Shown here: one piece after another, positions 2,608-19,504 of the stretch
Layout: every line of letters starts with the position of its first letter
Numbering within the stretch: position 1 is the stretch's first letter
Notes under the pieces: generated by a model
Databases searched by the model: none
What the model was told of the DNA's origin: nothing
Seen by the model: the letters and a program-made list of their open reading frames with translations, nothing else
Source of the DNA: Promethearchaeota archaeon
GTDB lineage: Archaea; Asgardarchaeota; Lokiarchaeia; Sigyniarchaeales; SOKP01
Assembly (NCBI GenBank): GCA_048941285.1
Contig: JBHLNS010000055.1
Span: forward strand, 1 to 19,504
Length of the DNA stretch: 19,504 bases
Direction: 5' to 3'
Made by a program: the position numbers and the translations under genes

Positions 2608-2841
2608 TAAATATGTCAACCTTATAAATATTATATAATCTTATTTCTTCTTTAAGTTAGACAAATTTAAACCCTATTAATATTTTTTATAGACCAGTTT
2701 TTATTTTGTATTTTAATAATATAGGTTTTCCCATTTTATGATTCAGTCCATAATATTTATATAATAAATTTATTTTATAGTAATATCAATTAACTTTTTA
2801 AAAGTATAAACGCGTAATCTAAAAGAAATGAGATGATTTAA

Positions 2842-9477: not shown

Positions 9478-9762
9478 CTAATCCTCATAATCATTTTTTG
9501 TGCTAATTAAGGTTGTTGTTGCTTCTATCCACTGTGACAATTCTGGATCATTTCTGCAGAACGACACAATTTTTTCTAAGTCCCCGAGATTAATAAATTT
9601 ACATTCAATTAGTAAATCCCAACCGCCATATATAGGTGTAACATAAGTGATCTGCCACTTTTGATTTTTATCGCTAGATTTAAAACTTTTTATTTTTTCT
9701 GTGACTTTCCATTGCGTACCAATAATCTTTAAACGAACTAAAATATATCCGCGATAATAAAT
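9478..9762 (-). CDS. Stand-alone Lrp/AsnC ligand-binding (RAM)-like domain protein, 94 aa, apparent ATT start (not in ORF track)
   Basis: Manual translation: (I/M)YYRGYILVRLKIIGTQWKVTEKIKSFKSSDKNQKWQITYVTPIYGGWDLLIECKFINLGDLEKIVSFCRNDPELSQWIEATTTLISTKNDYED-TAG. YILV, YGGWDLLIE and IEATTTLI fit the RAM pattern (G.YD.I ... I..T.T.I). An in-frame TAG directly precedes ATT; AGGTG lies 8 nt upstream. Confidence 0.8.
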   Translation of the reverse strand: MYYRGYILVRLKIIGTQWKVTEKIKSFKSSDKNQKWQITYVTPIYGGWDLLIECKFINLGDLEKIVSFCRNDPELSQWIEATTTLISTKNDYED

Positions 9763-9859
9763 CTATTTGACACCTAAATTGTATCTTTATATATAATGCA
9801 AATGATAGATTGTGATATATTTACAATATTTTTCAAGATTTCTATTAATGAGAGAGTAA

Positions 9860-10000
9860 ATAGTAGCAGTAATTTCATTTAAATATTATAAAATTATTTC
9901 AATTACCATTAGCTTTATAGGCACATTAATAGAGGGGATTTTTATCGTTCTTATCGCATGTGTTTTTAATGCTGTGATCTTTGGAGTAATGGAATTTTAA
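9860..10000 (+). CDS. Possible small membrane peptide (46 codons) or pseudogene remnant
   Basis: Open frame IVAVISFKYYKIISITISFIGTLIEGIFIVLIACVFNAVIFGVMEF-TAA, strongly hydrophobic. Preceded in frame by ATG AGA GAG TAA (9848-9859). Confidence 0.25.
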   Translation: MVAVISFKYYKIISITISFIGTLIEGIFIVLIACVFNAVIFGVMEF

Positions 10001-10048
10001 TCGCATTAAAAAAAGGTAGATCATAAAAAACCTGAATAGTAAGTTCAT

Positions 10049-13000
10049 CTACCAATATATTTCTTTTAATGTTTTATGATAATCATTAAGTGATTTAATC
10101 GTAATTTTTTTCTTCCTAACGTTTTCTATAGCATTTACCACAGCTTTAGCAAGTTGCAAATTAACAATAACAGGGATATTATAGTCAACTGCCATTCTTC
10201 GAATTTTATATTCATCTTCAATTATAATATTGAATTCATCTTCTGCTGTTGTTGGCATTGGAATATTAATCACCATATCAATATGGCCATCTTGCAGACA
10301 TGCCATTATATTTGGTTCTTTTCCGTATTCATGGACTTTATAGAGTTTAACTGCTTCAATTTCGTTATATTTTAATGCTAGTGCTGTATCTTCCGTTGCG
10401 AAGATTTTAAAGTTTAAGTTTTTTAATTTTTTGGCAATTGGTATTACTTCCTTCTTCAAATCTTCTCCACCTACAGATATTAATACATTACCGCCATTAA
10501 TGGGGATATCCATTTCTGTTGCTTCTAAAGCTTTTATTAGGGCATCTTGAAAGTCTTCGCCTATTATTCCGATTTCACCTGTTGAAGCCATTTCAACTCC
10601 AAGTCTAAAATCAGCTTTATCTAATCTCATGAAAGAAAAAATCGGAGCTTTGATTCCAACATAGTTTCCATAAGGAAGTTTAAGAAGTCTTTCAGGGATT
10701 TTTTTACCCATAATTACTTCTGCTGCTAATCTCATTAGATTAATACCTCTTATTTTTGAAACATAAGGCATACTACGACTTGAACGTAAATTGCATTCAA
10801 TTACATATACCTCTCCATTTTTAACTAAATATTGGACATTAAACGGTCCATTTATTTTGAGAGCTATAGCAATTTGTTTTGTATATTTTTCTATTATCTC
10901 GATAATAGACTGATCCACTGTTTGAGGAGGGATAGCCATGGTAGCATCTCCACTATGAATACCAGCATTTTCGATATGCTCGACAATAGCTCCTATCAAT
11001 ACATTTTCTCCATCACAAATACCATCACATTCAATTTCTCTAGCATTAGTAAAAAACTTAGTTATTACAACAGGATATTCACTGGAAACTGAAGCAGCAA
11101 GATCAAGAGTATCCTTTAGCGTCTTTTCTTCATAAGAAACTCTCATAGCAGCTCCACTTAACACATAAGAGGGTCTAACTAATACAGGGTAACCTACTTC
11201 CTTTGCAAATTGTAACGCTTCATTTTTATTAGTTAAGGTCTTCCATTCTGGCTGCATTATATTTAATTGATCTAATAATGCACTAAATTTACTCCTATCT
11301 TCTGCCATATCTATTCTAGAGCCATGAGTTCCTAGAATTTTTAAATTGGTTTTTCTAAAAAATTCTGAGTATTTAGAAATTTTAGCAGCTAAATTATTTG
11401 CTATTTGCCCCCCCGCAGAAACAACAATACCAGTTGCTTTTTCAAGCTCACAAATGTCAAGAACTCTTTCACCAGAAATTTCTTCAAAATATAATTTATC
11501 AGATATATCATAGTCAGTTGATACAGTTTCAGGATTATAATTTATTATAATTGCTTGATCTATGCCAAGTTTTTTTAAACCCCATAAACAATTGACAGAT
11601 CCCCAATCGAATTCAACTGAAGCGCCAATACGATATGTTCCAGAACCTAATACTATTATTTTTTTTAGATCTAATTTATTTTCTTTTTCAAAATCAATAT
11701 CGTGCTCAGATGCACAATATGTGAGATACAAGTAATTAGTTGCTGCTGGCCATTCAGCTGCTAATGTATCAATTCTTTTAACATAAGGTTGAACAGATAA
11801 TCTTCTTCTCATCTGTCTTATGAAAATAGTATCAACTTTCATAATTTTCGCTATTTGGCCATCAGAAAATCCATATCTTTTCGCTCTTTCTAGCCAATAT
11901 CTTTTCTCACTATCCTCAGTCTCAAGTAGATCAAGATCTTGCAGTTGACGTTCAAGATCAATAATATTTTTCAATTTATATAAAAACCACTTATCAATGC
12001 GGGATAATCGATATATTTCATCAAGGGAGATCCCTTTTTTTATTGCTTCAGCAATTCTAAATATCCTTAAATCTGTTGGATTTCTTAATACGTATTTTAA
12101 TTCATTAATATCTTCAATAAGTTCTAAATTATTTGCTACAAAACCTTTCATGCCAATATCAAGCATTCTAATGGCTTTTTGTAAAACTTCTTCAAAAGTT
12201 CTACCAATTGCCATTACTTCGCCCACACTTTTCATTTGAGAGCCTATTCTTCGATCAACCTTTTGAAATTTGGTCAAGTCCCATCTTGGAATCTTAAGTA
12301 CTAAATAATCCAATGCTGGTTCGAAACAAGCTGTTGTAACTCCAGTAATTTGGTTTTTTAATTCAGGTAATGTATATCCAATTGCTAATTTAGCAGCTAT
12401 ATACGCTAATGGATATCCTGTTGCTTTAGATGCAAGTGCAGAAGATCTTGAAAGACGTGCATTTACTTCTATTGCTCGGAACTCTTTTGAAAAGGGGTCA
12501 AGCCCATATTGAATATTACACTCTCCGATTATACCTAGGTTACGAATTACCCTTATAGATGCTGAACGAAGCATATGATATTCATCATTTGTAAGCGTTT
12601 GGCTAGGGCTAACTACGATTGACTCTCCTGTGTGAAGTCCAACAGGATCAAAATTTTCCATATTGCAATTAATAAAACAATTATCCTTAGAATCTCTTAC
12701 AACTTCATATTCTATCTCCTTCCAACCCCAAATACTTTCTTCAATTAAAATTTGATTTATTCTTGACTGAGCTAATCCCTTTTTCGCCATTCTTTCAAAT
12801 TCTTTTATATTATCAACAATACCAGATCCTCTTCCACCTAATGTATACGCTACTCGTATCATACACGGAAATCCAATTTCTTTTACAGCTTTTAATGCTT
12901 CACTATAAGAATTTACCGCCTGGCTTTTACACACTTTAACATTTGATTTTTCCATCGCTTTCACAAAAAGATCTCTATCTTCGGTAGCTTCAATTGCTTC

Positions 13001-13360
13001 AATAGGAGTCCCAAGCACTCTTACATTATATTTTTCTAAAATTCCCGCTTCTTTTAACTCAACACCTACATTTAAAGCTGTTTGTCCACCAAATGCTAAT
13101 AATATCCCATCTGGTTTTTCTTTTTTTATTATTTCCTCTACATATTTAATATTTATAGGTAATAAATAGACTTTATCTGACAATTCTGGGTCAGTTTGAA
13201 TCGTAGCAATATTGGGGTTGATCAATATTGTCTCAATTCCCTCTTCTTTTAGGGCTTTTAATACTTGACTTCCAGAATAATCGAATTCGCCCGCTTGACC
13301 AATCCTGATACCTCCACTTCCAAGAACTAATGCTTTCTTAATAGTTTTATCTAATGGCAT
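10049..13360 (-). CDS. carB: Carbamoyl-phosphate synthetase large subunit
   Basis: LGSGGIRIGQAGEFDYSG, two ATP-grasp halves (IEVNARLSRSSALASKATGYPLA; IECNLRSSRS), C-terminal MGS-like domain (FATEDTA...IRRMAVDYNIP). 1103 aa. Confidence 0.98.
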   Translation of the reverse strand: MPLDKTIKKALVLGSGGIRIGQAGEFDYSGSQVLKALKEEGIETILINPNIATIQTDPELSDKVYLLPINIKYVEEIIKKEKPDGILLAFGGQTALNVGVELKEAGILEKYNVRVLGTPIEAIEATEDRDLFVKAMEKSNVKVCKSQAVNSYSEALKAVKEIGFPCMIRVAYTLGGRGSGIVDNIKEFERMAKKGLAQSRINQILIEESIWGWKEIEYEVVRDSKDNCFINCNMENFDPVGLHTGESIVVSPSQTLTNDEYHMLRSASIRVIRNLGIIGECNIQYGLDPFSKEFRAIEVNARLSRSSALASKATGYPLAYIAAKLAIGYTLPELKNQITGVTTACFEPALDYLVLKIPRWDLTKFQKVDRRIGSQMKSVGEVMAIGRTFEEVLQKAIRMLDIGMKGFVANNLELIEDINELKYVLRNPTDLRIFRIAEAIKKGISLDEIYRLSRIDKWFLYKLKNIIDLERQLQDLDLLETEDSEKRYWLERAKRYGFSDGQIAKIMKVDTIFIRQMRRRLSVQPYVKRIDTLAAEWPAATNYLYLTYCASEHDIDFEKENKLDLKKIIVLGSGTYRIGASVEFDWGSVNCLWGLKKLGIDQAIIINYNPETVSTDYDISDKLYFEEISGERVLDICELEKATGIVVSAGGQIANNLAAKISKYSEFFRKTNLKILGTHGSRIDMAEDRSKFSALLDQLNIMQPEWKTLTNKNEALQFAKEVGYPVLVRPSYVLSGAAMRVSYEEKTLKDTLDLAASVSSEYPVVITKFFTNAREIECDGICDGENVLIGAIVEHIENAGIHSGDATMAIPPQTVDQSIIEIIEKYTKQIAIALKINGPFNVQYLVKNGEVYVIECNLRSSRSMPYVSKIRGINLMRLAAEVIMGKKIPERLLKLPYGNYVGIKAPIFSFMRLDKADFRLGVEMASTGEIGIIGEDFQDALIKALEATEMDIPINGGNVLISVGGEDLKKEVIPIAKKLKNLNFKIFATEDTALALKYNEIEAVKLYKVHEYGKEPNIMACLQDGHIDMVINIPMPTTAEDEFNIIIEDEYKIRRMAVDYNIPVIVNLQLAKAVVNAIENVRKKKITIKSLNDYHKTLKEIYW

Positions 13361-14499
13361 TAGTTTTTAACCCCCATTAATTCAATAAATTTATCAAATA
13401 GATATAAAGAATCTAAAGGTCCAGGTGATGCCTCTGGATGAAACTGAACAGCGAACAACGGCTTATTTGCATGTATTATTCCTTCATTAGAATTATCATC
13501 TATATTTTTAAGAAATTCCTTAAAACCTCCCGTTTCAAAATCTTTAACACAGAATCCATGATTCTGAGATGTTATATAACACTGATGAGTTTCTGGGTTT
13601 ATAATTGTTTTATTGCCTCCTCTATGACCATATTTTAATTTATAAGAAGAACCACCTGCTCCTAAACCTAAAATTTGATTCCCCAGACAAATACCCATTG
13701 TTGGTATATTATTTTCTATTAAGCTTCTGGCAACGTCTATTGCACTCTTATATATCGCAGGATCTCCTGGTCCATTAGAAATAAATACACCGTCTGGATT
13801 AAGTTTCATAATTTGATTGTAGTTGAAGTCAAAAGGTACAAGAATAACTTCAATCTCTCTCTGCACAAAATTCCTAAGAATATTATTTTTAACTCCCAAA
13901 TCTAACACTACTACTTTCCCTTTTGAATGTAGTGGTATAAATCTCTTAATTTCCTTAGTTGAAACTTCGCTCGCTAAATGTTTAAGGTTTGGATCTTCAA
14001 TTTTTTTGACTTCTTCTCTCAATTCATTTATTTTAGGTTTTTCTCCAGGATTATAAACAGCTAGTAATCCAACTTGAACGCCTTCTTCCCTCAAAATTCT
14101 TGTTAATGCCCTAGTATCGATCCACTCAATTCCAGGAACATCTTCTTCAAGAAGAAACTCATTGAGAGTTTTTGCACTCTCAAAATGGCTTGGATTTTTA
14201 CAACATTCATTAACTACAAATCCTCTTACTTTTATTGAATCTGATTCGAAATATCTTTGAATTCCATATTTATCTTTCTCCCAAGCTGGAACTCCATAAT
14301 TTCCAATAAGAGGGTGAGTCATAACTACAATTTGACCATGATATGAGGGATCTGTTAAAGTTTCATTATAACCAGCACCAGTAATTGTGGTAAAAACAAT
14401 TTCTCCTCCTACTTTCTTGGTAGAACCAAAACCGACTCCTTCAAAATAACGTCCATCTTGAAGCATCAGTATAGCTGGTCTTTCTTTCTTATAAAGCAT
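13360..14499 (-). CDS. carA: Carbamoyl-phosphate synthetase small (glutaminase) subunit
   Basis: LTDPSY.GQ, IDTRALTR..R..G, SNGPGDP, GICLG (catalytic Cys), SQNHGF, QFHPEASPGP. TAATG overlap with carB. Confidence 0.98.
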   Translation of the reverse strand: MLYKKERPAILMLQDGRYFEGVGFGSTKKVGGEIVFTTITGAGYNETLTDPSYHGQIVVMTHPLIGNYGVPAWEKDKYGIQRYFESDSIKVRGFVVNECCKNPSHFESAKTLNEFLLEEDVPGIEWIDTRALTRILREEGVQVGLLAVYNPGEKPKINELREEVKKIEDPNLKHLASEVSTKEIKRFIPLHSKGKVVVLDLGVKNNILRNFVQREIEVILVPFDFNYNQIMKLNPDGVFISNGPGDPAIYKSAIDVARSLIENNIPTMGICLGNQILGLGAGGSSYKLKYGHRGGNKTIINPETHQCYITSQNHGFCVKDFETGGFKEFLKNIDDNSNEGIIHANKPLFAVQFHPEASPGPLDSLYLFDKFIELMGVKN

Positions 14500-14596
14500 A
14501 GACTCTTTTGTAAGTCTCTTCTTTTAAATCTTTAAAATAAAGATAGCTAAACCTTTTTATTAAGATTATTTATTAATGAGTTAAATAAACGAGCGT

Positions 14597-15688
14597 TTAA
14601 ATAGAGCTACCCGGTGGTGGTGAGTATGATGAATATAATTCTTTTTTAATGCTTTCTCCCTTTTCTTTTAGAAATTCTTGTACTGTTTTCTTAATTGACT
14701 TAATTATTGATTCAAAATCAATTTCATGAAAAGAATTATACCACGAATAATCCTTAGTTTTTAACTTTTCTAATTCATCTGATTTCTGTAGAATTATTAT
14801 ATTGTGATCAATTAAAAATGATGGATCTAATATATTCTCCTCTCCATCATTTAATTTTTTTATATTTATAAGCATACACTCAAGTAAATCATCATAAAAA
14901 AGAAGTGGAATATATTTTAATAATTTAGGTTTTACGGTATCTAAAGAAGAATCTAACGTTTCTATGTTGTTTGTAAAACCTATTTCAGAGAGGTCAAAAA
15001 CATCTAGGTTTATCAGTTCTGGATGAAATTGTATTTGCTCTTTTTTTTTCATTTTTTCGCGATATTTTGCTATCTTTTTGATGTACATTTTAACTTTGGT
15101 TTGTAAATGCGTGGTTTCGACTAATATTGAATTTTCTTCTATTCTTTTTTCACATATATGTTGAACATTTTCGCAATAGAGAGTTGCTGCAGTTATTAGG
15201 TCTTCATTATTAAGTTTTGCTCTCAAAAGATTATCAACATATGATTTTAAAAATGCCAAGAAATCATTCTCAAGATCTAATAACTTAGCATACAAAAATT
15301 TTGTAGAATTCCACCATTTTTGTGCTTTTTGAGTTGTAAGAGAAAGAGCAAATTGACCGAAAGCACGAATTTCTGTGAAATTGATCAATTGCTCAATTCC
15401 ATATTGAATAAACATATTGGGATTGATTACGGCATTTAGGTCATCTATTAGTGGAAAAGAAATTGGCTCCCTAGGACGAATTAAAAGAGATTGTTCGCCA
15501 TTAAATACACGATCTACTCTCATGGGAATAGGCATAATTGGATTATTAATGATTCTTTTTAGTATTGCTACATCGCGTTCTGATTCAAAACCAGTTAGAT
15601 CAGGAGGAAACACTTCAAGATAAAAGAAAAAAGGTGCTGCATCATATTTAAAGGTTTTAAATTTATTAATTGGTTTTACAGAGATCAC
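14597..15688 (-). CDS. Hypothetical protein, about 360 aa, start uncertain (GTG 15688 or GTA 15679)
   Basis: Long clean ORF co-oriented between tetR and carA; no family recognised. The annotated GTG lies within the SD-like AGGTGATC. Confidence 0.8.
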   Translation of the reverse strand: MISVKPINKFKTFKYDAAPFFFYLEVFPPDLTGFESERDVAILKRIINNPIMPIPMRVDRVFNGEQSLLIRPREPISFPLIDDLNAVINPNMFIQYGIEQLINFTEIRAFGQFALSLTTQKAQKWWNSTKFLYAKLLDLENDFLAFLKSYVDNLLRAKLNNEDLITAATLYCENVQHICEKRIEENSILVETTHLQTKVKMYIKKIAKYREKMKKKEQIQFHPELINLDVFDLSEIGFTNNIETLDSSLDTVKPKLLKYIPLLFYDDLLECMLINIKKLNDGEENILDPSFLIDHNIIILQKSDELEKLKTKDYSWYNSFHEIDFESIIKSIKKTVQEFLKEKGESIKKELYSSYSPPPGSSI

Positions 15689-15696
15689 CTATGTTA

Positions 15697-16416
15697 TTAA
15701 ATATCTGATTCTTTTTGAACTGAGAATGAATCTATTAATGATTGGGTTAATTTTTGCAAAATAAATTTTCTGAAGTCATCTCTAGAAAAGTCTGATTGAC
15801 CAAACTGAATTATTTCACTTGCAAGATTACCATTGAAATTTTCACTTTGTTCTATTATTCTCATGTGCCTATCTACAATTGCAGCACCTAATATTAAACT
15901 ATAACTATAAAAAGAGAGTAGTCCCGGGTTAGTTTCTTTAATTTCTCCATCATCTATTCCATTCTGGATAGTTCTTGCTGTGCCTTTTAAAAAATTGAAT
16001 TTTCTAAATTCCTTTTCGAATGGACCCATTTTATCAGAAGATGGCGCTTCAATAAGATGCATCATACTAAAAGCCCCATAATCATCCTCAGCAAAATCTA
16101 AAAAATGTTCGAATAGCTTCATTAAAAGATCTGTAGCTGAACTTTTATGATTTCTAATAATTTCGATATTTTCATTTCTATATTGTTTAAAAAACTTATT
16201 CCGAATAGCAATCCACAATTCTCTTTTGCTCTCCACATAATTATATAGATTATTTTGATTCATATTAAGATTTTTTGCCAATCCTCGTAAACTAAAACCA
16301 TCTCTTCCCTTTTTTAAAAATAAATCCTTTCCTGCAGTCAAAATACGTTCAAACTGGGCTGCTTTTTTTTCAGGAGAACGACTCCGGGATTTATTTTTCT
16401 TTATTTTTTCACTCAT
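15697..16416 (-). CDS. TetR/AcrR family transcriptional regulator
   Basis: ILTAGKDLFLKKGRDGFSLRGLAKNLNMNQNNLYNYVESKRELW TetR HTH; C-terminal GIDDGEI motif. Confidence 0.92.
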   Translation of the reverse strand: MSEKIKKNKSRSRSPEKKAAQFERILTAGKDLFLKKGRDGFSLRGLAKNLNMNQNNLYNYVESKRELWIAIRNKFFKQYRNENIEIIRNHKSSATDLLMKLFEHFLDFAEDDYGAFSMMHLIEAPSSDKMGPFEKEFRKFNFLKGTARTIQNGIDDGEIKETNPGLLSFYSYSLILGAAIVDRHMRIIEQSENFNGNLASEIIQFGQSDFSRDDFRKFILQKLTQSLIDSFSVQKESDI

Positions 16417-16705
16417 TTTAAATTTTGATCCATTTTAATTAGAAATATTAAATTTGTAAAGCAAATTGTAAAAGTTTTGGACACATATTAAATTAAGAAA
16501 TTGATAATTATTAAGTTTCTAGCTTTAAATATCATACGTACATTAAAAAATTATTTATAGATTAAAATTTAAAAAAAATCCTTTAATTATAATTTGAAAT
16601 TATTCTTGCGATTCTTTTATTTTCAACTGAAAGATATCAGCTTTCTAAGCTTAAATAGGATTTCTCTTCATATTAAAAATTCCAATCCAATATTATATAT
16701 TTTCG

Positions 16706-17746
16706 TTATTTTAACATAGAATAATTATTTCGAATTACATTTTCTGCTTCTTTCATTATTCTTTCAATAATATCAGCGACATCATCGATACTATCAATAA
16801 TGCCAATTGATTGCCCTAGTAATACGGCACCAGTTTCAGTATCTCCATTATATACTCTATCATAAGCTCCTAAATCATGTACTCTTTGCTCAGGAGTAAT
16901 AGATTGCTCATAAGCAATCATTTCCTCTTTAGAGCTAGGTGCTGGATGTGATAGAGCATATTTGTTTTTGAATAAACGAATAGGACCAAATGCTCCTGTG
17001 AAAAGCCCTGTATCTTGTGGTTTTCCTGGTGGAATTAATGCTTTATACTTTTCATGAAATTCGCTTTGTTTTGAAGCGATGAATCTAGAACCCATAGCTA
17101 TTGCGCCTGCACCTAATGAAAGTGCTGCTACCAATGCTTCTCCTGTAGCGAAGCCTCCACATGCTATTTTGGGTAAATTAGGGAAAGCTTTATTAATTTG
17201 TTGGAGCAAGACAAGTGTAGTGACTCTTTCATATGATTGATGACCTCCTCCTTCAGTGCCAGTGACTACTATTCCGTCTACGCCTGAATTTATGCATTTC
17301 TGTGCAAGCCATACTGCAGGTGCCACATGAAAGTGCTTAACTTCCGAATTTTCCCTTAATTCTTGGAATGATTTTGAGGCAGGCAGTATATTTGAGGATC
17401 CTGCAGAAGTTAGCCAATATTTACATTGGTCCCTCATCTTTGGATTCTCCTTAACTATTCTGGGTAATTTTCTTACCATTTCTCGAACTCCTCGATTATT
17501 CCGAGAAGTGAGGATATTAAGACCAAATGGTTTATCTGTATGTTCAATCATATATTCTAAGCTCGAAATATGTTCCTTAACGGGATCTGTTCCCACTATA
17601 TTAACATTTGATAAAACACCCAAACCTCCTGCTTCGCATACGGCAAGGGCTAAATCGCGTGTAAAAAAAGGACCCATTGGTGCATTAACTATCGGATATT
17701 TTATCCCAAACATTTTAGTAATATTAGTTTCTATCATTTTACTCAT
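16706..17746 (-). CDS. Nitronate monooxygenase / FabK (enoyl-thioester reductase II) family FMN enzyme
   Basis: GIKYPIVNAPMG, LALAVCEAGGLG, TDKPFGLN, GTEGGGH (catalytic His), ACGGF.TG, LGA.AIAMGSRFIAS, GQSIG.I. Confidence 0.92.
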   Translation of the reverse strand: MSKMIETNITKMFGIKYPIVNAPMGPFFTRDLALAVCEAGGLGVLSNVNIVGTDPVKEHISSLEYMIEHTDKPFGLNILTSRNNRGVREMVRKLPRIVKENPKMRDQCKYWLTSAGSSNILPASKSFQELRENSEVKHFHVAPAVWLAQKCINSGVDGIVVTGTEGGGHQSYERVTTLVLLQQINKAFPNLPKIACGGFATGEALVAALSLGAGAIAMGSRFIASKQSEFHEKYKALIPPGKPQDTGLFTGAFGPIRLFKNKYALSHPAPSSKEEMIAYEQSITPEQRVHDLGAYDRVYNGDTETGAVLLGQSIGIIDSIDDVADIIERIMKEAENVIRNNYSMLK

Positions 17747-17800
17747 TCTTTTGAATTTTCATAAGTGTTTTTAATTAAAAATTTGTATTTGAAATTTAAT

Positions 17801-18976
17801 TTATGACATATTCACAAATCTACCAGATTTAAGTAAATCACAAGGTTTTAGATAAGGTTTATCTAACTTTTCAGCTGTTTCTTCTAAAAGCTTAGCTAAT
17901 TTTTCATAGTTTTTAGTAGCATATTCCATTGGACCCGAAAAGTTCATACCTGCTAAAATTGCTTCGTCAATTACTTTCCAATTCGTTACAACACCCTCCT
18001 CTAAGATTCTACATCCTTCATTGGCATTAATCGCGTTAAAAATCTCAGTATCAACAAGTCCCGCTTTTTTTGTGAGATCAGGTTGAGGCCTTCCCTTTGA
18101 CCAATCATAGAATCCTCTTCCTGTTTTTTTCCCCAGAGTCCCCTTTTCAATTTGCATAGTTAAAACTTTCCCGGGTTTAAAATCTGATGAAAGCTTTTCG
18201 CTATAGTAAAGTCCAGCATGATAAGCTATATCACGCCCTGTAAAATCTGATAAGGTTAATGAAGACATTGGCGTATTTGGTCTCGTTAGATCAGCGTCTA
18301 CTTGTTCCCAAGGAATACCCTTTTCATAAGCTAAATCAATTATGTAATTAGAATAAATATTTCGAGGTGCCAGTACACGGTTAACAATAAAACCTGGTCG
18401 ATCTTTCAGTACACGAGCAACATACCTTTCTCCTCTTAAGCATGGTAATGATTTCGCAACCTCAACTCCTATATTCATAGATTCATCAGAACTTTTATCA
18501 CTCTTAATTACTTCAATAAGTCGCATTAAAGGAGCTGGATTAAAGAAATGCATCCCGATTACATTTTCAGGTTTAATACATTTCTCAGCGATCTCAGTGA
18601 TACTAATTGAAGAAGTGTTTGAAGCAAAGATACAATGATCAGGAGAGTTTTCAATAACATCTTTACAGAGGTTTTGTTTTACATCTAACTTTTCTACAAC
18701 TGCTTCAATTACCAAATCTCCATCTTCAACTGCCTTAATAATATTTTTAGAAGTTTTTAATCTTGCTAAATAATCAGATGCACATAAACCTTCAGGTAAT
18801 ACTCCCTTTGATTCTAACTTTTCAAATCCTGTTTTAATGTAATTCAAACTCGTATCAATAATTTTATCGTCGATATCAACCGCAATGACATTATAACCTG
18901 CCATTAAGCAAACTTGGGCGATACCTTTACCCATATCGCCAAAGCCAAGCATCACAATGTTCTTAACATTTGCCAT
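17801..18976 (-). CDS. 3-hydroxyacyl-CoA dehydrogenase (NAD-binding domain + duplicated C-terminal domain)
   Basis: GFGDMGKGIA Rossmann loop, IEAVVEKLDVK, ASNTSS, GMHFFNPAPLMRLIE, PGFIVNR, LGKKTGRGFYDW, second C-domain NEGCRILEEGV...ID.A...G. Confidence 0.93.
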   Translation of the reverse strand: MANVKNIVMLGFGDMGKGIAQVCLMAGYNVIAVDIDDKIIDTSLNYIKTGFEKLESKGVLPEGLCASDYLARLKTSKNIIKAVEDGDLVIEAVVEKLDVKQNLCKDVIENSPDHCIFASNTSSISITEIAEKCIKPENVIGMHFFNPAPLMRLIEVIKSDKSSDESMNIGVEVAKSLPCLRGERYVARVLKDRPGFIVNRVLAPRNIYSNYIIDLAYEKGIPWEQVDADLTRPNTPMSSLTLSDFTGRDIAYHAGLYYSEKLSSDFKPGKVLTMQIEKGTLGKKTGRGFYDWSKGRPQPDLTKKAGLVDTEIFNAINANEGCRILEEGVVTNWKVIDEAILAGMNFSGPMEYATKNYEKLAKLLEETAEKLDKPYLKPCDLLKSGRFVNMS

Positions 18977-19331
18977 TTAGATCAAAGTCATTTTGTAATT
19001 AAATTTAATTTATAAATATACGTTATACATTAAATAATCTTTTTGTAATAAAGTATTTTAAAATTTACAGCCAAATTTAGGTTAAAGTAATTAGAATGGA
19101 TTATAATTAAAATTAAATAGATCTTGAGTATAAGAGAAAAATGAGAAGAGATTTTTAATAAGAATGATTGGATATTGTTTATAATCTATATTCTTCCCAA
19201 TGTTTTCTCTATGTAATTATGTAAAATAGTGATCAAACTTTCAGTAATATATTTCATAAAAACTATTTAAACACCGTTTATTTCTTTAGTTAAGATATAG
19301 TCTAAAATAAAAATGGATAGTTGAACTTAAG

Positions 19332-19504
19332 ATAGAAACAATAAAGAACGAAATTAAAATAATAAAAACTGGCTGTTGCCACGATTGTGGTGGTCGCTGT
19401 ATTCTTAGAGCTCATGTAAAAAATGGGAAAATTATAAGATTTGAAACTGATAATGGAGAAGAGCCACAATTAAGAGCTTGCTTACGGGGAAGGGCGTATA
19501 GACA
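19332..19504 (+). CDS. Molybdopterin oxidoreductase catalytic subunit, DmsA-like, 5' part only, apparent ATA start (not in ORF track)
   Basis: Manual translation: (I/M)ETIKNEIKIIKTGCCHDCGGRCILRAHVKNGKIIRFETDNGEEPQLRACLRGRAYR. The C-x3-CGGRC...RAC.RGRA.R pattern is the N-terminal 4Fe-4S site of the DmsA type. Runs off the window end. Confidence 0.88.
   Translation, partial: METIKNEIKIIKTGCCHDCGGRCILRAHVKNGKIIRFETDNGEEPQLRACLRGRAYR

Follow-up and report, generated by a model that had tools for sequence, protein, structure and literature searches.

Can an archaeal ribosome regularly begin translation at codons such as ATT or ATA when a Shine-Dalgarno (SD) motif lies at the proper distance upstream? 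This question was raised by a stretch of DNA (the window, 19,504 bases) from a Promethearchaeota archaeon, a Loki-type member of the Asgard archaea (Promethearchaeia); the window is the entire contig C93 of the host draft genome G000 (3.55 Mb, 101 contigs, 29.7% GC). A sequence-only reading of positions 9478–19504 had counted roughly 15 genes, two of which seemed clearly to start at ATT 9762 and ATA 19332 and one possibly at GTA 15679, and had proposed that the lineage routinely lets the SD set the start. The count obtained here for the same span was 8 genes, with ATG as the start in five and GTG, ATT and ATA in one each; the ATT was retained, the ATA gene was retained with its probable start at another ATA, and the GTA was discarded. 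The analysis of the whole genome and of its relatives pointed to a broader answer, namely that throughout the genus AUU, AUA, AUC and CUG would be regular start codons lying 6–8 nucleotides (nt) behind a GGUG-type SD. To this reading, together with the mechanism proposed below, we assign a probability of roughly 0.8; genuine near-cognate initiation in the genus is considered highly probable from the comparison of sequences.

Near-cognate codons behind SD cores across the genome

The 16S 3' end of G000 is GGATCACCTCC, and the full SD complement is therefore GGAGGTGATCC. A set of 3,444 gene-like stop-to-stop open reading frames (ORFs) was picked in G000 by codon-usage score, and the motif GGTG was counted in the first 30 codons of each ORF, provided that no in-frame canonical start (ATG, GTG or TTG) lay upstream of it. 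A GGTG with no ATG/GTG/TTG 3–12 nt downstream was termed an orphan. At the 5' ends of these ORFs, 192 GGTG motifs were followed by a canonical start at 3–12 nt and 174 were orphans.

The in-frame codon located 6–8 nt after an orphan GGTG was ATT in 47 cases, ATA in 31, ATC in 8 and CTG in 9, which amounts to 95 of 165 (58%), versus 15 of 317 (5%) in the out-of-frame control with the same spacing (Fisher p 7e-39). The same four codons reached only about 12% at the control spacings of 3–5 and 9–12 nt, about 10% after GGTG motifs deep inside genes, and 9–24% after eleven other 4-mers used as decoys (SD-core words such as AGGT, which scores higher, were excluded from these). Furthermore, the near-cognate share climbed with the length of the SD core, to 69% for AGGTG and 80% for GAGGTG. 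The second-base variants ACG, AAG and AGG showed no enrichment behind orphan GGTG. These results indicated that the density of near-cognate starts is above chance genome-wide and that the SD enrichment, for which the earlier proposal had suggested a test, has its peak at 6–8 nt, is specific to the reading frame and is stronger with a longer SD. That proposal had described the starts as third-base variants of the canonical codons, which holds for ATT, ATA and ATC; CTG, with a first-base mismatch, also belongs to the set, and GTA does not.

The next canonical start lay a median of 22 codons from the 95 candidates, and at least 10 codons away in 70 of them. In two genes of the window (cases 1 and 2 below), no in-frame ATG/GTG/TTG separates the conserved N terminus from the stop upstream of it, and the same absence was built into the selection of these candidates. 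When any core among AGGT, GGTG and GTGA was accepted in register, the candidate list grew to 154. On these counts, about 75–95 genes would have genuine near-cognate starts with GGTG alone, and up to about 150 under the looser definition of the SD, so that near-cognates may represent around one third of GGTG-led starts and some 2–3% of all ORFs.

A Pfam scan of 10 of the 95 candidates found the domain beginning 2–34 residues past the near-cognate codon in nine, and in eight of the ten the use of the next canonical start would remove part of it. The starts supported in this way were those of the ribosomal proteins uS10, uS12 and eL21 (all ATA), a Ras-family GTPase (ATA) that would lose its P-loop from the next canonical start, a cytidylyltransferase-like protein (ATT; its Pfam match begins at residue 8, whereas the next canonical start is codon 21), a Fer4-ETF protein with a Fer4 pair (CTG), a DUF134 protein (ATA) and an aminotransferase (ATT). 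The presence of near-cognate starts on ribosomal protein genes argues against a use restricted to low expression.

The same pattern was found in a second species of the genus, G006, in 1.2 Mb of which 37 of 55 orphans were followed by a near-cognate codon, next to 58 canonical SD-led starts. Forty of the 95 candidates had a match in this sequence, and 28 formed good ortholog pairs (two of them being the case-1 gene and its paralog, both paired to one locus). The aligned codon in G006 was ATT, ATA, ATC or CTG in 23 pairs, ATG in three, TTG in one and another codon in one. CTG remained CTG in its three pairs, and ATT, ATC and ATA interchanged freely. Hence, the position of the start is conserved in orthologs and exchanges with ATG or TTG at the same aligned codon, both among paralogs and in the G006 pairs. 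In 173 of 737 alignments between G000 and G006 the similarity extended at least 5 codons upstream of the first canonical start; the leaders are AT-rich and conserved, so this figure is uninterpretable. The claim that the lineage routinely sets near-cognate starts by means of the SD was thus sustained by the enrichment in G000, its repetition in G006 and the domain losses.

Three genes of the window

The first gene of the window (case 1) has an AGGTG core on the minus strand, followed by TCAAATAG and the ATT, and it ends at a TAG (9480–9478). About 290 nt of non-coding DNA lie upstream, and the earliest ATG/GTG/TTG in its 94-codon ORF appears 65 codons 3' of the ATT. In 20 orthologous loci of the genus, the protein similarity starts precisely at the ATT-aligned codon, which is ATT in 14 and ATC in six; GGTG is located 8 nt 5' of it in 19 loci and GGAG in the remaining one, and a stop codon stands just before it in 10. 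Across 80 species-representative loci, the start codon was ATT in 58, ATC in 20, ATA in one and ATG in one, with GGTG at 6–9 nt in 77. In a group of 13 paralogs (~63% identical), exactly this codon is ATT or ATC in 11, ATG in one and TTG in one. Both gene copies are kept throughout the genus; in G000 the second RAM-fold copy, 64% identical, lies on contig C20 (46432–46707, plus strand), with its ATT 6 nt after GGTG. In other families of the order, the case-1 protein has an ATG or GTG start 2–5 codons farther upstream. The use of ATT 9762 behind an SD was therefore borne out by its conservation in the genus and among the species loci.

A read-through of the TAG that precedes the ATT was considered and rejected, there being no canonical start between the preceding upstream stop and this TAG. 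A AATATCTAAAGA-like motif, conserved in several case-1 orthologs (L004, L005, L010, L012 and L020), is found about 10 nt 5' of the GGTG; its copy in the window is ATTATATATAAAG (9786–9797).

The case-1 protein gave no Pfam or NCBIfam family at E <= 0.01, and a profile of its family against PDB sequences reached at best E 0.017, to 2cvi. Its AlphaFold2 model (pLDDT 85.8) has a beta-alpha-beta-beta-alpha-beta topology with strand 1 at residues 3–11, and the top Foldseek matches in the PDB were Lrp/AsnC and stand-alone RAM structures (2cyy, 1ri7, 2cvi and 2e1a, and also 2zbc; E ~3e-4, TMq 0.64–0.69). On this model, the protein is predicted to be RAM-like by fold and not a family member by sequence, and we read it as a putative small ligand-sensing regulatory protein. 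The next canonical start would delete strands 1–3 of the fold.

Public predictions of the case-1 family were also inspected. Among the 120 matches listed, the best was 92% identical, and the window copy was not one of them. Their lengths were 84, 87, 94, 99 and 104 amino acids, with at least 38 entries of exactly 84. Of 13 sequences examined, four begin with MKIIG at an internal TTG and lose strand 1, two are extended through the SD (MGVRSIYY... and MKLKDSGVKLIYY...), five begin with M[YF]YRGY, one with MIRLK and one with LIYY. The hidden or truncated proteome that had been foreseen for this lineage is thus visible in this family, where the predictions begin at the nearest ATG, TTG or GTG.

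The second gene (case 2) leaves the contig after 64 codons. Its ORF begins at 19311, after TAA 19308–19310, and contains no in-frame ATG/GTG/TTG ahead of the CxxC Fe4S4 motif; an ATG does occur at 19313, but in another frame. The 64 residues on the contig matched the Fe4S4 domain PF04879 (E 7e-9, 35.9 bits versus a cut-off of 22.7) and TIGR02166 (E 1.5e-13), and the orthologs have open frames of 760–820 amino acids. Among 24 orthologs, 14 start with ATG and one with TTG. In the other nine, that of the window included, the stretch ahead of the Cys motif contains no canonical start; three of these nine have ATA at the codon aligned to Met1, one has ACG and one AAG, and in four the aligned codon is unclear. 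The Met1 of the orthologs (MVEFKI, MVGFKI, MSEF...) aligns to the ATA at 19317–19319, 5 codons 5' of the ATA 19332 that had been proposed behind the motif GTTGA. The GTTGA (19320–19324) therefore corresponds to codons 2–3 of the oxidoreductase gene and is not an SD, and no SD was found ahead of 19317 or of the non-canonical starts of the orthologs. The lack of a canonical start and the ATA as the codon were consequently upheld, whereas the position and the SD were not. A frameshift from the out-of-frame ATG 19313 was ruled out by the in-frame ATG of the orthologs.

For the third gene (case 3), the suggested GTA lies 6 nt after a GGTG (15689–15686), and the motif that includes this GGTG encloses an in-frame GTG, which comes directly after a TAG and 5 nt past the stop of the upstream TetR gene. 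This in-frame GTG is present in 21 of 25 orthologs. The GTA-aligned codons in the window and its four nearest orthologs (L233–L237) are GTA, TTT, GTC, TTC and GTC. A start at GTA 15679 was not supported by these data; the codon behaves as a Val/Phe sense codon, and the GTG 15688 serves as the start. Sixteen less closely related orthologs carry ATT or ATA at the aligned codon, 6 nt after GGTG. In one of these, L248, the ATT must be the start, since a TAG separates it from the GTG; in another ortholog, L251, an in-frame TGA lies within the GGTG motif, with GTT 7 nt downstream of the motif. Judged by these alignments, the near-cognate habit would be a property of the case-3 gene in its relatives and not in the window.

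Table 1. Genes and start-site features of the window between positions 9478 and 19504.
Feature	Positions	Strand	Remarks
Case-1 gene, 94 codons	9478..9762	minus	predicted stand-alone RAM-like fold
ATT start codon	9760..9762	minus	RAM-fold gene
In-frame TAG	9763..9765	minus	immediately 5' of ATT
AGGTG, SD core	9771..9775	minus	8 nt ahead of ATT
TATA-like run ATTATATATAAA	9786..9797	minus	-35 to -24 relative to ATT; putative, by eye
carB and carA	in span 9478–19504		
Nitronate-monooxygenase/FabK-like gene	in span 9478–19504		
3-Hydroxyacyl-CoA dehydrogenase gene	in span 9478–19504		
Case-3 gene, 363 codons	14597..15688	minus	no known family; GTG start 15688–15686
GTA suggested as possible start	15677..15679	minus	behaves as sense codon in the window's subclade
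GGTGAT motif	15684..15689	minus	encloses in-frame GTG
TetR-type regulator gene	in span 9478–19504		directly upstream of case-3 gene
Case-2 gene, first 64 codons	19311..19504	plus	5' part of DMSO-reductase-family molybdopterin oxidoreductase gene; PF04879, TIGR02166
ATA, probable oxidoreductase start	19317..19319	plus	aligns with Met1 of orthologs; without SD
ATA proposed earlier	19332..19334	plus	internal Ile codon by ortholog alignment

Reach in the lineage and the initiation machinery

Three further genomes of the order were sampled at 0.4 Mb each. In G033, which belongs to another family and has 53% GC, only 1 of 31 orphans was followed by a near-cognate codon, next to 51 SD-led canonical starts, and this genome serves as a negative control for the orphan-SD method. 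The corresponding values were 2 of 9 orphans and 28 canonical starts in G038, and 6 of 10 and 31 in G032, both with 31% GC. These are two AT-rich genomes of a third family, and low GC is therefore insufficient by itself. On these samples, the near-cognate habit appears to be strongest in one genus and not general to the order. The start of uS10 was ATA in all three genomes of the genus examined; among five sister-genus genomes, four had GTG, TTG or ATG, and ATG or GTG was found at all 23 loci of other families. The fifth sister genome, G083, showed no evident start; its uS10 locus (L374) has neither a canonical codon nor ATH/CTG at or beside the aligned start (…GGTGAGAAAAAC TCG CAA…).

The gene of the initiation factor aIF1 was itself found without a canonical start. 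In the genus it reads, after an in-frame stop, (GAG) AGT ATT AAA GAC GAC GAC ATT TGT CCx ATA TGT, and all 21 readable genomes carry the ATT and lack any ATG/GTG/TTG ahead of the zinc knuckle. Five of six genomes of three sister genera likewise have the ATT and the sixth has GTG, which gives 26 of 27 readable genomes for the family. In other families of the order aIF1 starts with TTG, GTG or ATG, and probably with ATA in one; in that case (L220, from G030) the gene reads GTG AGA TGA followed by AAA AAC ATA CCA…, and ATA is the probable start. Among 30 aIF1 loci from elsewhere in the phylum, five, belonging to 3 families, lacked a canonical start; judged by the spacing to an SD-like motif, the most suitable codon was ATA in three and CTG in two. 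The earlier proposal had suggested inspecting aIF1 for unusual substitutions; genus-specific changes were seen, none of them at invariant positions. For aIF1A (two copies), aIF2-alpha and aIF2-beta, an in-frame ATG stands at the start of the ORF or close to it.

Additionally, the aIF1 leader of the genus (G000 contig C34, ~2621–2660, minus strand; L192–L215) contains a conserved AAAGG TTG TGA TAA element, in which stops come immediately after an in-frame TTG, 9–12 nt ahead of the ATT; the element may represent a start-stop or else an SD that has been interrupted (GGTTGTGAT).

The mechanism that we propose is the following. Pairing of the SD would place the near-cognate codon in the P site, where the ordinary Met-tRNAi would pair with two of its three bases. 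aIF1 would be kept at a permissive level, its own synthesis relying on an AUU start, through a negative feedback like those of bacterial infC/IF3 and of eukaryotic eIF1, and AT-biased mutation would let SD-backed ATG starts drift to ATT or ATA. The ATT start of aIF1 suggests, by analogy, a feedback that sets proofreading at a permissive point, although for this component our confidence is limited and we advance it tentatively. The loose discrimination by aIF1/aIF2 that had been proposed is likewise something that we infer. Somewhat doubtful is the fuller version, in which stringency would be set by aIF1 feedback through its own AUU, AUH/CUG would be ordinary starts for about 3% of genes, and the arrangement would predate eukaryotes. 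The weak codons may reflect adaptive tuning or neutral drift, and a link to eukaryotic non-AUG initiation is a matter of speculation.

Alternative explanations, known systems and significance

The alternative that survives best, itself unlikely, is an expanded decoding, by which AUH and CUG would be read through a modified C34, as in mitochondria, or by a second initiator-like tRNA, possibly giving N-terminal Ile or Leu. In mitochondria, AUA/AUU initiation is regular in an AT-rich genome by means of a modified tRNA-Met and a changed code (AUA = Met); unlike in mitochondria, nothing in this lineage hints at a code change, and a code in which ATA/ATT = Met was set aside by reasoning. The free interchange of ATT, ATC and ATA and the constancy of CTG are what synonymous codons would produce, and only 26 tRNA matches (24 above the family cut-off) were obtained in G000 with Rfam RF00005, and fewer with aragorn. 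Nevertheless, the sole initiator tRNA found is canonical in sequence, with A1:U72, a GGG/CCC anticodon stem (three G:C pairs) and a CAT anticodon in G018. In G000 its gene (contig C74) has an intron of ~24 nt and exons identical to those of G018, so an inspection of this tRNA, which had been suggested earlier, showed no unusual substitutions. It was located by a pattern search from the genus and blastn; aragorn, with and without introns, and the Rfam tRNA model reported no CAT tRNA in G000, the gene being split by its intron. The tRNA-Ile(GAT) of G000 has, by eye, an ordinary elongator acceptor end and anticodon stem, ATG and TTG interchange with the near-cognates too, and T/C transitions with AT-biased mutation would explain the pattern of codons with no new decoding.

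Two further observations were made on the tRNA genes. The intron-containing initiator tRNA gene lies ~1 kb upstream of aIF2-beta on the same strand (C74 minus, ~17481–18956), and many tRNAs of G000 carry introns, some of them in unusual places.

It is very improbable that near-cognates serve only termination-reinitiation within operons, a setting in which start-codon identity would matter little to a ribosome that has already engaged the mRNA. An in-frame stop does lie within 2 codons upstream in 32 of the 95 candidates, and archaeal SDs are typical of operon-internal genes. The distance to the end of the upstream same-strand gene was 40 nt or less for only 16 of 90 near-cognate starts, compared with 84 of 183 SD-led canonical ones, and re-initiation in operons is therefore not a general explanation; the non-coding DNA upstream of case 1 also counts against it.

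The chances are slimmer still that these genes start at the next downstream ATG/GTG/TTG and that the conserved GGTG and ATT/ATA region upstream of it remains untranslated, as a leader or part of the promoter. An enrichment confined to the frame of the ORF (58% versus 5%), the Pfam domains cut in 8 of 10 cases, the loss of strands 1–3 in case 1 and the occurrence of ATG or TTG at the identical position in certain orthologs and paralogs outweigh the facts that public calls of the case-1 family often begin at an internal TTG (84 amino acids) and that the upstream DNA is conserved between close species. Finally, assembly errors or decaying pseudogenes can practically be dismissed: G000 is a metagenome-assembled draft in 101 contigs, but the same state was found in 20–80 independently assembled genomes and in a contig from another study (X2, 12 differences, none listed at the ATT or the GGTG of case 1, which it spans), and ribosomal protein genes and aIF1 are affected with their frames intact.

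Several results weigh against SD-led near-cognate initiation as the general rule proposed here. At a background of ~12%, about 20 of the 95 candidates would be expected by chance, and one on the window's own contig (C93 19401) was false, its GGTG being internal to the oxidoreductase gene. In an SD-independent test with distant orthologs from G032, G033 and G038, the first canonical start lay at least 5 codons inside the aligned region in 27 of 427 cases for G000 and 19 of 427 for the references, a small and noisy difference that was not used as support. Case 2 indicates, from its alignments, that SD guidance would not account for every non-canonical start. If the ATTATATATAAAG or TATA-like run of case 1 is a promoter, the transcript start would fall after the SD, very near the ATT. 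The low number of tRNA matches means that the tRNA set was incompletely detected, which leaves room for a second initiator-like tRNA, and the 94%-complete G000 assembly yielded no match to the aIF2-gamma C-terminal domain (PF09173). Moreover, G032 has near-cognate starts despite a TTG on aIF1, and the sister genera have ATT on aIF1 yet canonical uS10 starts; the link to aIF1 is therefore not one-to-one.

With these reservations, SD-led near-cognate initiation in the genus would represent a known mechanism in an archaeal form that is dense and lineage-wide, and its link to aIF1 is suggestive. No systematic account of near-cognate starts in archaea was found among the papers searched. For bacteria, the mechanism is well established, though rare. 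The comparisons that follow draw on excerpts of the papers cited. The nearest bacterial parallel is infC (AUU; AUA in S. aureus), like aIF1 a proofreading-factor gene with a near-cognate start conserved in its clade (PMC13009471). aIF1 resembles IF3 in binding a similar site of the small subunit and in rejecting AUU in vitro, and the Sulfolobus factor makes the 30S complex reject an AUU mRNA (PMC4705826). The two differ in that their folds are unrelated, that autorepression is established for IF3 and proposed by analogy for aIF1, and that infC is nearly the sole user of AUU in bacteria whereas about 100 other genes would share it here. Ribosome profiling of S. aureus, as excerpted, reports four AUA/AUU sites with extended SDs, infC included, yielding ~10–30% of the AUG output; ccpN, cvfC1, citZ and infC of S. 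aureus and B. subtilis share with the present genes the same codons, a strong and well-spaced SD and cross-species conservation (PMC13009471). The difference lies in the number, four sites per genome in S. aureus against 95 candidates here, ribosomal protein genes among them, and in the host, an archaeon with eukaryote-type factors (PMC13009471).

eIF1 and IF3 both autoregulate through weak, disfavoured start sites, and eIF1, with an AUG in poor context, is a homolog of aIF1 in the SUI1 family whose synthesis is likewise tied to a start site that it disfavours (PMC4705826; PMC6237735). Eukaryotes, whose non-AUG initiation is under the control of eIF1/eIF5, scan and use Kozak context, whereas here the SD would position the codon, and eukaryotic near-cognates are mostly CUG, GUG and ACG, as against mainly AUU and AUA. 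Within the Asgard archaea, a 'rare ATT start codon' has been proposed for the tubulin gene AtubA of a Kariarchaeaceae (Heimdall-type Asgard) metagenome-assembled genome; as in case 1, annotation had truncated the gene, and the fold is recovered from an ATT that follows a plausible ribosome-binding site (PMC13394414). In the excerpt of that work, AtubA is treated as a single gene and an oddity, with no genome-wide or comparative analysis (PMC13394414).

One consequence concerns annotation. Gene finders restricted to ATG/GTG/TTG would cut short, wrongly extend or miss the near-cognate genes, and work on 'eukaryotic signature proteins' of Asgard archaea depends on correct N termini, as the AtubA case illustrates (PMC13394414). 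Archaea join a bacterial-type SD positioning with the eukaryote-type factors aIF1 and aIF2, and the genus would show that the requirement for ATG can be worn away by AT-biased mutation in combination with a strong SD. If the proposed feedback is true, infC and eIF1 control would both have an archaeal equivalent in the aIF1 loop, and the near-cognate starts of aIF1 in no fewer than three further Asgard families would imply that the autoregulation of a fidelity factor through a disfavoured start is older than eukaryotes. The lineage may thus offer a natural system for learning how start stringency is set and whether eIF1-type feedback predates eukaryotes.

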